Below, one piece after another: positions 1 through 31,493 of a stretch of DNA of 64,000 nt. The position numbers and the translations under genes are program-made. The notes beneath the pieces are model-generated. The model was not told the origin of the DNA. It saw only the letters and a program-made list of their open reading frames with translations, and ran no database searches. This stretch comes from Candidatus Microgenomates bacterium (GTDB taxonomy: Bacteria; Patescibacteriota; Microgenomatia; UBA8517): assembly GCA_049523135.1 (NCBI GenBank), contig JBEKNE010000001.1, positions 210,095 to 274,094 on the forward strand, given 5' to 3'. Each line of letters starts with the position of its first letter. Position 1 is the first letter of the stretch.

Positions 1-230
1 GCTTCAGGCATTACAACCTGGCTATATATATCTGTGACACAAGCTCTGAGATTAACATTATGTGCATTGAAGGACACTGGAGAAGTGAGGCCAGTCAAAG
101 CGAATTTGAAGCAGGTCTCGTACTTGGTCGAAAGCTCGCTGCAACCCTCCCTGGGCAAAAATATACGGGTATGAAATATCCAACTAGCCGGATGCGCAAG
201 GCATGGAAGTCTGCAAAGAGATATAGATAA
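1..230 (+). CDS. 3' end of an unidentified protein-coding gene (frame 3, open to window start; ...FEAGLVLGRKLAATLPGQKYTGMKYPTSRMRKAWKSAKRYR*)
   Basis: Open reading frame running off the 5' edge with stop TAA at 228-230; intrinsic terminator follows. No confident homology by eye. Confidence 0.3.
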   Translation, partial: FRHYNLAIYICDTSSEINIMCIEGHWRSEASQSEFEAGLVLGRKLAATLPGQKYTGMKYPTSRMRKAWKSAKRYR

Positions 231-249
231 ACAAAGACAAGTGCAGGTT

Positions 250-289
250 AGCCCTGAACAATAAGAAAAATGTTCAGGGCTATTTTTTT
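250..289 (+). terminator. Rho-independent terminator (AGCCCTGAACA..TGTTCAGGGCT + T7)
   Basis: Perfect 11-bp inverted repeat followed by a 7-8 nt T run, seen directly. Confidence 0.8.
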
Positions 290-306
290 GGCAAAACCAG
301 CCTTGC

Positions 307-17953: not shown

Positions 17954-18024
17954 CGGGGTGTAGTTCACCGGTAGAATGGGCGCACGGGGTGCGTCCGAAC
18001 TGAGTCCAATTCTCAGCACCCCGA
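17954..18024 (+). tRNA. tRNA-Pro(GGG)-like gene, 71 nt, no encoded CCA, non-canonical C33 and C55 in my hand fold
   Basis: Cloverleaf folds as acceptor CGGGGTG/CACCCCG plus A73 (typical tRNA-Pro), D arm GTTC-ACCGGTA-GAAT, anticodon arm GGCGC-ACGGGGT-GCGTC, 4-nt variable loop, T arm CTGAG-TCCAATT-CTCAG. A14, G18G19, A21 and G53-C61 are conserved. The odd loop positions may mean a degenerate copy. Confidence 0.5.
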
Positions 18025-18080
18025 CTATAGGGTATTAAGTAGGTATTGACTTCGTATTTCCTTCGGGGTGACAATTAAAT

Positions 18081-26720: not shown

Positions 26721-27704
26721 ATGAATAATCTTTTAGTTATTTGTGGTCCCACTTCAACAGGAAAGACGAGTTTAGGCATTACTCTTGCCAGGAAGTTTAA
26801 TGGTGAAATTATCTCGGCCGATTCCAGACAGGTTTATAAAGGAATGGATATAGGAACCGGTAAAAGCCTGCCGAAGGGGGTAAAAATAAAATTCCCATGG
26901 TTTGGAAAATATGGATATTACGAAATAAATGGGGTAAAAATCTGGGGTTATGATTTAGCCGATCCGAGGCATGGATTTAGCGTCTCACAATATCTAAAAT
27001 TTATCGAAAGAATACTTGCAGATATTAATAAAAGGGGCAAACTTCCTATTCTTGTTGGTGGAACAGGACTTTACATAAAAGGAGTAATTGAAGGAATCCC
27101 GACGGCCTTGATTCCTAGAAGCAGTCAGTTAAGGAAAAATCTGGAGATGAAAAGTCCTGAAGAGCTTTTTGAAAATCTGGCCCAAATAGATTCCATCAGA
27201 GCAGCGCAAATGAATTCTTCCGACAAGAAAAATCCAAGACGTCTGATTCGTGCCATAGAGGTTGCAACATGGAAAATAAGTAATATGGGAAAGGATCGTG
27301 ATATTGAAAAAAGGAAAGTGAATTTGAATGTTTTGGAAGTAGGGCTTACCGCTTCTGCAAAGGTAATTGAAAAAAGAATAAATTTGAGGGTAAAAAATCG
27401 TCTAAAGGAAGGGATTAAAGAAGAAATAGAACACTTGCTGAAATCCCATGTTGGTTGGGATGTGCAGTCAATGTCGTCAATAGGCTATGGCCAGTGGAAA
27501 GATTATTTTGAGGGTAGAAAACCTGAGGAAGAAGTTGTTAAAGAATGGGAAGAAGAAGAAAAAAAGTATACAGGGCGTCAAATGGTATGGTTTAAAAAAG
27601 ATAAAAAGATTGTCTGGTTTGATATATCTGACCCTGATTATCCCGAGAATGTGGACAAATTAATCGGAAAATGGCATAATAACCTAAATGTTCAGAAAAA
27701 TTGA
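26721..27704 (+). CDS. miaA: tRNA dimethylallyltransferase
   Basis: N-terminal P-loop ICGPTSTGKTSLGITLA and ISADSRQVYKGMDIGT motif. Confidence 0.9.
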   Translation: MNNLLVICGPTSTGKTSLGITLARKFNGEIISADSRQVYKGMDIGTGKSLPKGVKIKFPWFGKYGYYEINGVKIWGYDLADPRHGFSVSQYLKFIERILADINKRGKLPILVGGTGLYIKGVIEGIPTALIPRSSQLRKNLEMKSPEELFENLAQIDSIRAAQMNSSDKKNPRRLIRAIEVATWKISNMGKDRDIEKRKVNLNVLEVGLTASAKVIEKRINLRVKNRLKEGIKEEIEHLLKSHVGWDVQSMSSIGYGQWKDYFEGRKPEEEVVKEWEEEEKKYTGRQMVWFKKDKKIVWFDISDPDYPENVDKLIGKWHNNLNVQKN

Positions 27705-28662
27705 GATTTCCCACAAAACTGTTATTTTTACCGTATTTTTCCTACTGAGTCTTTGGTTCGTGTATTTTATAAGGGGAATAATTTTAGAACTTTTTGTTGC
27801 TTTTCTCCTGATGACTATTATGGAACCGTTGGTGGTATTCCTTGAGAAGATTAAAATCCCAAGGGTCGTGTCGGTATTAATAACTTACATCTTGGTGATT
27901 GGAGTTTTGGGAGGATCAATAGCTTTAATAATTCCGACTTTGGTTCAGCAAACAACCAACTTTGCGAATGCCCTTCCCACGTATTTTGCCAATATCGGTA
28001 TTCAACTTTCAATAAGTGGAGATGTTGCGAAAGGGTTCATGCAACAGATAAGCGGAGTTTCCGGTGAGGTGCTTAATTTTACTTTTTCACTTTTCTCGAA
28101 TGTGTTTGCCATTTTGACGATTCTTGTTTTTGCCTTCTATATGCTTCTGACTCACAACGGGTTTAAGAGCCAGGTCCAGATGCTTTTCGGTGAAGCCAAG
28201 GGCCAAAAAATCAGTAAACTGATTATCGGCATTGAGGAAAAATTAGGTAAATGGGCCAGGGGGCAGCTTATTTTGATGTTGGCAGTAGCGATTGGAACTT
28301 ACATAGGGTTACTTCTTATCAGTGTTCCGTTTGCCTTACCGCTTGCGATTTTAGCCGGGATTTTTGAAATAATTCCTATTTTGGGACCGATTGTTTCCAC
28401 TATTCCTGCTGCCCTTATCGGATTTGGTATTTCTCCTGTTACAGGAGTGGGAGTGGTTGTTGTAGCACTATTGGTACGCGGGCTTGAAGGTTATGTGTTG
28501 GTGCCAAAGGTTATGCAAAAGTCCGTAGGAGTTTCACCTTTGGTTGTGCTTATTTCAATTGCCGTTGGTGCCAAGCTTGCCGGAATAATGGGAGTAATTG
28601 TTTCAATCCCTTTGGTTATTACGTTTGAAGTTTTAATTAGAGAATACTTCATCAAGGAATAA
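27688..28662 (+). CDS. AI-2E family transporter (PerM-like permease)
   Basis: 8-TM protein with the AI-2E conserved segment ...IPILGPIVSTIPAALIGF.... Confidence 0.8.
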   Translation: MFRKIEISHKTVIFTVFFLLSLWFVYFIRGIILELFVAFLLMTIMEPLVVFLEKIKIPRVVSVLITYILVIGVLGGSIALIIPTLVQQTTNFANALPTYFANIGIQLSISGDVAKGFMQQISGVSGEVLNFTFSLFSNVFAILTILVFAFYMLLTHNGFKSQVQMLFGEAKGQKISKLIIGIEEKLGKWARGQLILMLAVAIGTYIGLLLISVPFALPLAILAGIFEIIPILGPIVSTIPAALIGFGISPVTGVGVVVVALLVRGLEGYVLVPKVMQKSVGVSPLVVLISIAVGAKLAGIMGVIVSIPLVITFEVLIREYFIKE

Positions 28663-28670
28663 TTTATACC

Positions 28671-28702
28671 AACAAAAAATCCCGCTTGTGCGGGACTTTT
28701 TG
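28671..28702. terminator. Bidirectional intrinsic terminator (TCCCGC-TTGT-GCGGGA flanked by A6 / T5)
   Basis: Stem-loop with T-run on the plus strand (ends the permease transcript) and U6 on the minus strand (ends rnpB). Confidence 0.8.
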
Positions 28703-29013
28703 TACTCTGGAAAAGAGTAAGCCAGGTTCTGTTTTTCGATGATCATCCATCTAACGCCCTCGAACCTCGGGACTCGGGAAAGCGCTTCAAACGTCCCTTT
28801 CGGAGGTTGCAGCGGGGAGGATTGCCTCTTTTCACTCGTTTTCTTTTACCTTTAGGGTAAGAGACTCGACATAGTTTCTGTGGCTCTATACTGGCCAAAC
28901 CCAAGGTTTCCCTTGAGCCTGTCTCCGGCTTACGCCAGACACCCTGCTTTCTGCTGCCTGGACTTTCCTCACCAGCCTTGTGAGGCTAGCGCGATCATCC
29001 TTTCTCCAGAGTG
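28703..29013 (-). ncRNA. rnpB: RNase P RNA (bacterial type, compact ~310 nt)
   Basis: Minus strand reads ...GGUGAGGAAAGUCCAGGC... (CR-I/P4 5' strand) and ...ACAGAACCUGGCUUAC... (CR-V/P4 3' strand), with an A-U covariation relative to E. coli CCGGG/CCCGG. P1 pairs CUCUGGAG with CUCUUUUCCAGAG, P2 pairs GAUGAUCG with CGAUGAUCAUC, and P3 is the hairpin CCUCAC-AAGGCUG-GUGAGG. GUGAAA and ACAGAAAC motifs are present. The region is GC-rich and ORF-free on both strands. Confidence 0.85.
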
Positions 29014-29018
29014 AGGAA

Positions 29019-29050
29019 AGTATACCACTTTTTGCTACCGATTTCATAAA
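29019..29050 (-). promoter_or_regulatory. rnpB promoter with extended -10 (TGgTATACT)
   Basis: On the minus strand TGGTATACT lies ~7 nt upstream of the predicted RNA 5' end (CACUCUGG); the -35 is weak (ATGAAA-like). Confidence 0.45.
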
Positions 29051-29120
29051 CCCAAAATATTTTTAATATTCAATTTGCTGAGACACTTCAGTATCGGCCG
29101 AAGTTGGACTAATATTAATT

Positions 29121-31493
29121 ATGATTGCTACGACTAATAAAATTAAACGTCAGAAATTTAGTGCTTGGGTTGTGTTTCTTAGGCAATTCAAAAACCCGCT
29201 TCTTTTGGTTTTTATTGTCTCAACTATAGTTGCATTTGTTGTTGGAGAAAAAACGGAAGCGTTTGCTATTTGGATTGTAATGTCTCTTTCCATAATTTTA
29301 GGTTTTTGGAATGAATACCAAGCGGAAAAAGTTGTCAATGATCTGATTAAGCGGATTTCATTTACGGTTAGCGTTAAAAGAAACGGAGTTGAAAAAATAA
29401 TTCCCGTTGCCGAAATACAACTTAATGATGAAGTTTTTCTGCATTCTGGATCGATTATCCCCGCCGATATCCGAATATCAATTTCTGAAGGTCTAGAGGT
29501 CAATGAATCTGTTATTACTGGAGAATCGTTACCTGTGCCGAAAAAGGACGGAGACCCTGTTTATATGGGAACAGTTGTAACAAGCGGAAATGCTCACGGA
29601 GTTGTTACTGCAATCGGAATGGATACAAAATATGGAAAAATTTCTGGTCTAACCGATAAAGCCCGGCCTCTTACCGAATTTCAAAAAGGGCTTCAGGATT
29701 TTAGTTTGCTTCTTGCCAAAATTGCGGGGGTAACAGTTGTGCTTGTTATCGGTTTTGGATATTTTCTGCATCATCCGATTGTCGATACGGTACTTTTTGC
29801 ATTGACTGTAGCTATGGGAATCACACCGGAGCTTTTGCCGCTTATTGTCACATTAAGTCTTTCTTACGGTTCCAAAAAATTAGCAAAGAAGGATTTAATT
29901 GTAAAACAATTTGTCTCAATAGAGGATATTGGAAATATGGAAGTTCTTTGCACGGATAAAACAGGCACTTTAACGGAGGGCAAAATTTCTCTAAGTTTAT
30001 ATCAGGACAAATCCGGTAAAGAAAACCCCGAAGTTCTTAGCTTAGGTTTAATTTGCAATTCAGGGTTTACCCATGGATACGCCGCTGCGGATTCTATCGA
30101 TAAAGCAATCATTGATTTTGCAGAGTCAAAGGGCATTAAGATTACCAATAAACCAGAAAAACTTTATGAAATGCCCTTTAATTTTGAGAATAGATTTATG
30201 TCTATCGCGATAAAAAGAGATGGAAAAGTAGTTTTGATTTGTAAAGGTTCGCCAGAAGCAATAATAGCTCGGTTGAAACTTGATGATGAGGAGAAGAAAA
30301 AACTTGAGAGTACTTCGGATGGTCTTCAAAAGAACGGCTTGAGAGTAATTGCTGTTGCATCAAAAGAAATAGTCAATTTTGATCCTAAACTTATTAAAAG
30401 CGAATTTAAAGATCTTAAGTTTGGAGGATTTATGAGTTTTGCCGATGTTCCCAAAAAAGATTTGGCGGAAGATTTTAGAAAATTTGAAAATCTCGGGGTT
30501 TCAATAAAAATAATTACGGGAGACAGTGAAATTGTTGCTGAAAAAGTGTCCAAAGATGTCGGGTTTGATTATAAAAAGGTTTTGACCAACTCTGAAGTTG
30601 AGAAGATGAATGACTTGGAGTTGGAAAAAGAAGTATGGAAAGTAGACATTTTTTCCAGAATTACTCCATCCCAAAAAGTAAGGATAATTCAAGCTTTAAA
30701 GAAGGGTGGCAGAACCATAGGTTATATGGGTGATGGGGTTAATGACGGCCCGGCTCTTCGTATCGCCGATGTGGGAATTTCTGTTAATACCGGAGTGGAT
30801 GTAGCCAAAGATACAGCCTCAATTGTACTTCTTAGGAAGAGCCTTGGGACTATTGCTGATGGAATTAAAGAAGGAAGAATTACTTTCCAAAATACAATTA
30901 AATATATTTTAATGGGAACAAGCTCTGATTTTGGAAACATGGTGAGTGCGGCGGCGGCATCCATAATCTTGCCATTTTTGCCCATGACACCGGTGCAGTT
31001 TTTACTTAATAACATTTTGTATGATGTTTCTCAAACTTCTATCCCGACGGATAATATTGACCCTGATCAGATACGACTTCCCAGAAGTTGGGACATAAAT
31101 TACATAAAGAAATTCATGATTTTATTTGGTTTAATAGGAACTTTATATGACTTTTTGACCTTCGCAGTTATGTATTTTGTATTTCACGCTAGAGGAAGCC
31201 TATTCCAGACCGGTTGGTTTGTTACTTCGTTCATAACTCAAGTCTTGGTAGTTTTTGTAATAAGAACCAGAAAAATTCCCTTTTGGAAAAGTAAGCCCAG
31301 TACTCCATTTTTAATAACTTGTTTAAGTGTTGTAGTTCTGGCTTTATATCTGCCATTTAGTCCGTTTGCAGACTACCTCGATTTTAGTAGACTTCCGTTA
31401 CTTTATTTTGGTTTTCTAATTGGAATTACTCTAACATATTTAGGAATGGTTGAAATCGGAAAATATTATTTGAATAGGAATAAATTTATATAA
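29121..31493 (+). CDS. Cation-transporting P-type ATPase (MgtA/Ca2+-type, P2/P3 family)
   Basis: DKTGTLT phosphorylation motif, TGES, GDGVNDGPAL hinge, 10 TM helices. Confidence 0.88.
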   Translation: MIATTNKIKRQKFSAWVVFLRQFKNPLLLVFIVSTIVAFVVGEKTEAFAIWIVMSLSIILGFWNEYQAEKVVNDLIKRISFTVSVKRNGVEKIIPVAEIQLNDEVFLHSGSIIPADIRISISEGLEVNESVITGESLPVPKKDGDPVYMGTVVTSGNAHGVVTAIGMDTKYGKISGLTDKARPLTEFQKGLQDFSLLLAKIAGVTVVLVIGFGYFLHHPIVDTVLFALTVAMGITPELLPLIVTLSLSYGSKKLAKKDLIVKQFVSIEDIGNMEVLCTDKTGTLTEGKISLSLYQDKSGKENPEVLSLGLICNSGFTHGYAAADSIDKAIIDFAESKGIKITNKPEKLYEMPFNFENRFMSIAIKRDGKVVLICKGSPEAIIARLKLDDEEKKKLESTSDGLQKNGLRVIAVASKEIVNFDPKLIKSEFKDLKFGGFMSFADVPKKDLAEDFRKFENLGVSIKIITGDSEIVAEKVSKDVGFDYKKVLTNSEVEKMNDLELEKEVWKVDIFSRITPSQKVRIIQALKKGGRTIGYMGDGVNDGPALRIADVGISVNTGVDVAKDTASIVLLRKSLGTIADGIKEGRITFQNTIKYILMGTSSDFGNMVSAAAASIILPFLPMTPVQFLLNNILYDVSQTSIPTDNIDPDQIRLPRSWDINYIKKFMILFGLIGTLYDFLTFAVMYFVFHARGSLFQTGWFVTSFITQVLVVFVIRTRKIPFWKSKPSTPFLITCLSVVVLALYLPFSPFADYLDFSRLPLLYFGFLIGITLTYLGMVEIGKYYLNRNKFI

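Follow-up and report, generated by a model that had tools for sequence, protein, structure and literature searches.

A reduced bacterial type A RNase P RNA gene between two transporter genes of a Microgenomates-group bacterium

Knowledge of type A RNase P RNA rests on the structure of the Thermotoga maritima holoenzyme with tRNA and on biochemistry in Escherichia coli and Bacillus subtilis. In these RNAs, the metal-binding active site is built from the P4 region and the conserved joins next to it, the joins after P11 and P12 stack on the T-loop and D-loop of the tRNA, the 3' CCA is bound through pairing with the GGU of L15, and the two domains are kept in register by the P13/P14 layer and three contacts, L8-P4, L9-P1 and L18-P8 (PMC4919922, PMC8457005). 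Parts of this architecture are lost in nature: archaeal type A RNAs as a rule lack P13/P14 and P18 (PMC4919922), and the Aquificales and Chlorobium have lost P18 and, with it, the L18-P8 contact (PMC8457005). Diverged RNase P RNAs were also reported by Lui et al. 2021 for 35 closed CPR genomes, the class Microgenomatia included (PMC8172020). Many of these RNAs are missing P13, P14, P16 and P17, P18 is absent from some and P12 from two, and two thirds have no GGU; 10 of the 35 are detectable only below the Rfam cut-offs; the loss of P13, P14 and P18 "is not uncommon"; and, in complete CPR genomes, no RNase P RNA other than such a reduced rnpB was found (PMC8172020).

Here, we analyze a 64-kb stretch of DNA (the window), in which a preliminary description made from the sequence alone had placed an unlisted rnpB gene on the minus strand of the gap between the genes for an AI-2E permease and a P-type ATPase. 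Using cmscan, we searched the whole window against all 4227 Rfam families and found two matches above the gathering scores, namely a tRNA and RNaseP_bact_a (RF00010). The latter, whose absence the preliminary description would have taken as a refutation, is a single full-length match to model positions 1-367 on the minus strand of the gap (28702..29010), with 105.8 bits against a gathering score of 100 and an E-value of 2.5e-31; it is the sole RNase P match in the window, and RF00010 is the best and only model of the RNase P clan above threshold. The margin of only 5.8 bits is narrow because helices are missing. The E-value and the covariation counts described below exclude chance. Folded alone, the RNA has a thermodynamic fold that beats all 100 shuffles (z = -3.6) and recovers P1, P3, P8 and P9. 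Nothing speaks against its identification as rnpB, and we are highly confident that what lies between the two transporter genes is the ordinary housekeeping rnpB of this organism, in a reduced type A form known from the CPR. At 309 nt, the RNA has the compact size of ~310 nt first given for it, and the region is indeed GC-rich (G+C of 0.48-0.53 compared with about 0.32-0.42 on both flanks). Two details of the preliminary description need correction: the gap measures 458 bp (28663..29120) rather than 350 bp, and it is not ORF-free, as three mechanical ORFs of 44-53 aa overlap it. The features of the locus are listed in Table 1.

Table 1. Positions of rnpB, its structural elements and the adjacent features (window positions; RNA positions counted from the 5' end of the RNA)
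Feature	RNA positions	Window positions	Strand	Description
rnpB, RNase P RNA, bacterial type A		28702..29010	minus	309 nt; RF00010 match and covariation on 24 sequences
Putative promoter		29019..29047	minus	-35-like ATGAAA 29047..29042 (weak); 17-nt spacer ending in TG 29027..29026; -10 TATACT 29024..29019
Bidirectional intrinsic terminator		28671..28701	both	stem TCCCGC/GCGGGA 28680..28695, 4-nt loop (TCCCGC-ACAA-GCGGGA)
AI-2E family transporter		27688..28662	plus	Pfam
P-type cation ATPase		29121..31493	plus	Pfam
P1	1-11 with 294-305		minus	5' strand UCUGGAGAAAG, partner C.CUUUUCCAGA; the partner, close to the 3' end, is also read CUCUUUUCCAGA
P2	12-18 with 267-273		minus	GAUGAUC/GAUCAUC, 7 bp
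P3	20-41		minus	9-bp hairpin, CACA loop
P4	46-54 with 285-292	5' strand 28965..28957; 3' strand 28726..28719	minus	U49 bulged (28962)
P5	55-58 with 198-201		minus	hand-written structure
P6 pseudoknot, 5' strand GAAAGC	60-65	28946..28951	minus	joining region P5-P7; partner 28783..28778
P6 pseudoknot, 3' strand GCUUUC	228-233	28778..28783	minus	within the P16 terminal loop
P7	67-71 with 194-197		minus	hand-written structure
P8	72-87		minus	hand-written structure
P9	90-115	28896..28921	minus	11 bp (unusually long), GAAA tetraloop
P10/P11	119-129 with 185-193		minus	hand-written structure
P12	142-175	28836..28869	minus	3 + 10 bp, one G.A and one C.A mismatch
P15-L15-P16 arm		28758..28806	minus	P15 CCUC/GAGG, P16 GGGAC/GUCCC, 19-nt terminal loop bearing the P6 3' strand
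P15	205-208 with 250-253		minus	hand-written structure
P16	214-218 with 238-242		minus	hand-written structure
CR-I GAGGAAAGUCCAGGC		28970..28956	minus	identical in every aligned relative (prescribed by the search pattern)
CR-V ACAGAACCUGGCUUAC		28732..28717	minus	sequence and Rfam alignment
Join at the P13/P14 site, GUGAAAAGA		28827..28835	minus	9 nt between P12 and the P11 3' strand; conserved GUGAAA block
Join at the P18 site, GCGUUAGAUGGAU		28745..28757	minus	13 nt between P15 and P2

We wrote the full structure by hand from the Rfam model alignment and by inspection; in it, RNA position n corresponds to window position 29011 - n. Helices P1-P12, P15 and P16, including P4 and P6, are present together with the conserved loops. 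P1 and the P3 hairpin are found in the minus-strand sequence as proposed earlier, and two further pairs, reaching 29012 and 28704, are possible in P1. The P2 helix exists as well, but the 3' strand originally quoted for it, CGAUGAUCAUC, does not occur literally; the sequence reads GGAUGAUCAUCG. P4 has eight standard pairs, AAG.CCAGG with CCUGGCUU. Its CCAGG/CCUGG differs from the Rfam consensus CCGGg/CCCGG in one pair, A52-U287 instead of G-C, with both strands changed, as the preliminary description had stated. Compared with type A RF00010, P7 contains a U without partner, which is bulged. The GGU of L15 lies at RNA positions 245-247 (28766..28764). All of the universal core blocks are present, i.e., CR-I GAGGAAAGUCC, ACAGAAA after P11, GUGAAA after P12, GCAA after P5, and CR-V ACAGAACC.GGCUUA. 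The P4 pairing and the CR motifs, the latter at the expected place on the minus strand of 29060..28663, had been read correctly.

To obtain relatives, we scanned a species-representative genome collection for CR-I and CR-V separated by 205-235 nt, which yielded 31 loci; this pattern fixed both the A-U variant of P4 and the length of the gap, and the count is no estimate of frequency for all Patescibacteria. The loci are mostly labelled as Candidatus Woesebacteria, Shapirobacteria, Blackburnbacteria, Microgenomates or "Patescibacteria group" MAGs. None is identical to the window rnpB; the nearest are L020 (88%, central 257 nt only), L033, L025 and L031 (about 87%, full length) and L008 (84%). 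Judged by these relatives, the window host is a bacterium of the Microgenomates/Woesebacteria group (Patescibacteria, CPR). Eight of the records (L004, L016, L017, L018, L021, L026, L027 and L028) are labelled as "uncultured Gammaproteobacteria" or "Alphaproteobacteria" MAGs and carry the same compact rnpB and the order miaA, AI-2E, rnpB, dtd, with proteins 40-57% identical to those of the window; these labels are probably wrong.

We aligned the window RNA with 23 of the relatives using MAFFT (n = 24) and counted the hand-written structure on this alignment, which is not structure-aware, so that the pairing percentages of P3, P9 and P12 are underestimated. Standard pairs occupy 90.5% of 2069 cells compared with 36.5-51.6% if the 3' partners are slid by 1-3 columns. 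Similarly, changes on both sides occur at 69 of the 94 pairs (26-38 in the slid versions), and the covariation score is 0.379 (0.083-0.126 slid); none of 500 shuffles attained any of the observed measures. Compensatory changes occur in all helices but P4 and P10, for example in P1, P2, P8, P12, P15, P16 and the long P9. P10 has two pairs, both invariant, and covariation in P4 is uninformative in this set of 24 sequences because the search pattern fixed both strands. In the specificity domain, P7, P8, P9, P10/11 and P12 are 80-100% paired, with compensatory changes. Both sides change at all four pairs of P15 and at four of the five pairs of P16. P6, which lies outside the nested structure of the Rfam model, is paired in 89.6% of cells, and five of its six pairs change on both sides, giving variants such as AAGGC/GCCUU (L003), GGAAAC/GUUUCC (L032) and AAAAAC/GUUUUU (L022). 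The core blocks are invariant or nearly so in the 24 sequences: CR-I and CR-V, which the pattern fixed, and, free of it, ACAGA.A, GUGAAA, GCAA, AGA..GAU of the P15-P2 join and the AA of L8, which is invariant; L9 is a GNRA loop. The compensatory changes across the helices show that the fold is under selection in this lineage.

The preliminary description had raised the question of which peripheral helices are missing. We found that P13, P14 and P18 are absent and P17 is vestigial, and that P15 and P16 are present. The 43-position block that follows GUGAAA in the Rfam model, which by the standard helix order of type A RNAs we take to be P13 and P14, is shrunk to 1 nt in the window RNA; likewise, the 24-position P18 block of the model, from P15 to the AGAUGAAUG strand, is shrunk to 1 nt. 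Between P16 and the P6 strand, 9 nt (GUUUGAAGC) could form at most a 3-bp hairpin, and the relatives have no conserved pairing there; this leaves no room for a real P17. The P12-P11 join measures 8-9 nt in 20 of the 24 sequences and 30-38 nt in four relatives (L019 from Blackburnbacteria, and L030, L015 and L014 from Shapirobacteria), in which it forms two mini hairpins that we read as P13/P14 remnants. The P15-P2 join is 12-13 nt in 24 of 24 sequences, and P18 is thus absent from all of them, a uniformity that partly reflects selection and a biased frequency, since the relatives were chosen for a short distance between CR-I and CR-V. The GGU of L15 is kept in the window RNA and about half of the relatives and degraded (AGU, AGC) in the others, and this partial loss fits the published absence of GGU from two thirds of the CPR RNase P RNAs. 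P13, P14 and P18 are not family-defining, and natural losses of them are documented (PMC8172020, PMC8457005).

Two further variations were observed among the relatives. L027, L022 and L011 (alignment columns 379-405) carry a hairpin insertion of 15-16 nt, e.g., CUCCGGUCAACCGGAG, between the P2 3' strand and CR-V, an unusual helix site for type A RNAs. In L004, L032 and L017 (alignment columns 319-342), an extra hairpin of ~20 nt lies inside the P16 loop after the P6 3' strand; P17 is normally placed before that strand.

The long P9, with a region of 27-33 nt, is limited to the window RNA and its seven nearest relatives; in the other 16, the region is an 11-nt CGG-GNRA-CCG hairpin in 10 and 13-34 nt long in the remaining six. 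The layer of P13/P14 and P18 normally keeps both domains of RNase P RNA in register. Archaeal RNase P contains four or five proteins, and a bacterium is expected to have RnpA only. One could speculate that the 11-bp P9 is a lineage-specific replacement strut with a new long-range contact that offsets the loss of P13/P14 and P18 or, alternatively, that the archaeal-like helix set makes for an enzyme needing protein beyond RnpA; we regard this as unlikely. The covariation on the long P9 shows a real helix and nothing more. The accessible sections of Lui et al. 2021 make no mention of the long P9 of this subclade (PMC8172020).

Based on established knowledge of the family, we infer catalysis, a protein partner and the tertiary contacts as follows. 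The rnpB RNA together with the small RnpA protein would remove the 5' leader from tRNA precursors. The catalytic core would consist of P1-P5 (P4 with its bulged U among them), P15/P16, the P6 pseudoknot and the invariant GCAA that follows P5, and the specificity domain of P7-P12 with the ACAGAAA and GUGAAA joins. The GGU of L15 would pair with the 3' CCA of the precursor, the AA of L8 would serve the L8-P4 contact and the GNRA L9 the L9-P1 contact, and the L18-P8 and L14-P8 struts are lost. The elements for the active site, for binding of the T-loop and D-loop, and the GGU are all present and conserved in the window RNA, as are the AA of L8 and the GNRA loop of L9.

We suggest that rnpB would form a separate minus-strand transcription unit. 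An extended -10 promoter would set the start at the presumed mature 5' end or 1-2 nt upstream of it, and an intrinsic terminator, used in common with the convergent AI-2E permease gene, would end transcription. In a promoter consensus scan, there was one match compared with 1.2 expected in the region, i.e., no more than chance alone. The comparative support for the putative extended -10 promoter is good: TGnTATAMT (M = A or C, i.e., TGnTATAAT or TGnTATACT) ends 7-8 nt before the RNA 5' end in the window and in all 13 of the relatives inspected, most of which also have xTGAAA at -35, and the upstream DNA is otherwise dissimilar. From the spacing of the -10 element, transcription would start at about 29012..29010. 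The terminator hairpin lies 6 nt past the RNA 3' end and 18 nt past the stop codon of the permease gene; the T-runs after it are UUUUUUGUU (28679..28671, minus strand) and CTTTTT (28696..28701, plus strand). The terminator scan lists only the plus-strand orientation. In 12 of the 13 relatives, a different GC-rich hairpin with a T-run is found 3-8 nt past the RNA 3' end, often flanked by an A-run as well; among these 13, only L003 has no hairpin with a T-run there. The preliminary description had proposed both elements, and both the sequence and the relatives (13/13 and 12/13) bear this out; "bidirectional terminator" is a fair description.

Using tblastn with the window proteins against the 31 loci, we found that the vast majority have the order ABC-2 permease, miaA, AI-2E, rnpB (on the opposite strand), dtd, and this conserved gene order ties the window to the Woesebacteria/Microgenomates clade independently of the RNA. 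Only the window, L025 and probably L008, a locus that ends inside the ATPase gene, have the P-type ATPase gene between rnpB and dtd; in most relatives (L033, L031, L012 and others), dtd is within a few hundred bases of rnpB. The ATPase gene looks like a recent insertion into the conserved order. The ABC-2, miaA, AI-2E and dtd genes are tightly packed on the plus strand, and the miaA and AI-2E frames overlap by 17 nt (27688..27704); the tight packing around AI-2E is typical of a small compact genome.

The window contains two tRNA genes, one for tRNA-Gln with an encoded CCA and a candidate for tRNA-Pro without. The CCA encoded by tRNA-Gln matches the GGU retained in L15. The tRNA-Pro (GGG) candidate was reported by ARAGORN in an intergenic gap (17954..18025, plus strand); the Rfam tRNA model gave no report of it up to an E-value of 10, and only a chance-level sRNA match was seen around it. 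By eye, it forms a cloverleaf, with C rather than U at position 33 and a T-loop of UCCAAUU rather than UUCRANN; an unusual CPR tRNA and a false positive would both fit. A regular expression for the "RNR" motif of RnpA, applied to all six frames, found no rnpA in the 64-kb window; for a genome of several hundred kb or more, this absence carries no weight.

A score barely over the Rfam threshold and the loss of three or four helices are what would be seen if this rnpB were a decaying, nonfunctional remnant, with tRNAs processed by another rnpB copy or by a protein-only RNase P (HARP/PRORP). However, 24 aligned species, at 67-88% identity, share the reduced architecture and show compensatory changes in almost all of its helices, the nucleotides of the catalytic core are invariant, and the promoter, the terminator and the gene order are conserved as well. 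Moreover, in complete CPR genomes, a reduced rnpB is the only RNase P RNA that was found (PMC8172020). We consider a remnant very improbable and infer that the RNA is active.

There is scarcely any prospect that the region instead codes for a short protein and resembles an RNA incidentally. The E-value of 2.5e-31 is to a full-length model of a structured RNA, substitutions are paired and compensatory, and the changes in helix length among the relatives would break a reading frame. ORFs do exist, two of 53 aa on the minus strand (28743..28904 and 28886..29047) and one of 44 aa on the plus strand, and a 74-residue partial product was called on the public contig L002 (4056..4280, corresponding to window positions 28743..28967, minus strand), but the longer contig L001 has no gene call there. 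Equally negligible is the chance that the gene encodes an RNase P RNA of another class, be it the bacterial type B or, through horizontal acquisition, the archaeal type A. Its helix set equals that of archaeal type A RNAs, which also lack P13/P14 and P18 (PMC4919922); on the other side, the bacterial type A model is the only one of the RNase P clan above threshold and the best, a P15/L15/P16 module of the bacterial kind, with GGU, is present together with the P6 pseudoknot, relatives of the class with two mini hairpins at the P13/P14 position show stepwise loss inside a bacterial lineage, and the flanking genes are all bacterial and ordered as in Microgenomates MAGs. As for type B, P5.1, P10.1 and P15.1 are absent, and the sites of the type B insertions hold no additional nucleotides.

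For annotation, an essential housekeeping RNA gene is to be added to the list for this window at the coordinates of Table 1. Among the relatives, 25 of the 31 loci score above the Rfam gathering threshold, 23 of them at 104.6-125.8 bits and two outliers at 266 (L009) and 229 bits (L005). The other six (L013, L016, L018, L023, L024 and L028) remain below the gathering score of 100, at 82.9-99.9 bits with E-values of 1e-23 to 2e-29, and strict Rfam annotation would call these genomes free of RNase P RNA. These six loci have perfect CR-I and CR-V and, where the flanks are visible, the same gene order. The RNase P RNAs of this clade thus lie at the edge of the RF00010 threshold, such that strict pipelines report some genomes as having no rnpB, and gene callers may place spurious short ORFs on the gene. 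Both points have already been made for the CPR by Lui et al. 2021 (PMC8172020); the locus is an added example of a reduced rnpB form already described for the CPR and not a discovery. The 74-residue "protein" of L002 is such a spurious ORF; the short contig ends inside rnpB.

Compared with the type A RNAs of RF00010, such as E. coli M1 RNA and the Thermotoga maritima P RNA, the window RNA shares the core blocks, P4 with its bulged U, P6, P15/L15/P16 with GGU, the AA of L8 and the GNRA L9; it differs in having 309 nt against a consensus of 367 positions, in lacking P13, P14 and P18, in its vestigial P17 and in its P9 of 11 bp. The loss of P18 is common to it and the P18-less type A RNAs of the Aquificales and Chlorobium, which are unrelated lineages and retain P13/P14. 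Archaeal type A RNAs lack the same helices (P13/P14 and P18; PMC4919922) but belong to a different Rfam family, whereas the window RNA matches the bacterial model. The window RNA also resembles the CPR RNase P RNAs of Lui, Nielsen and Arkin 2021, which come from the same radiation, are similarly reduced and score near or below the Rfam cut-offs; relative to that set, it keeps P12, P15, P16 and the GGU and, thus, lies at the conservative end of the spectrum (PMC8172020).
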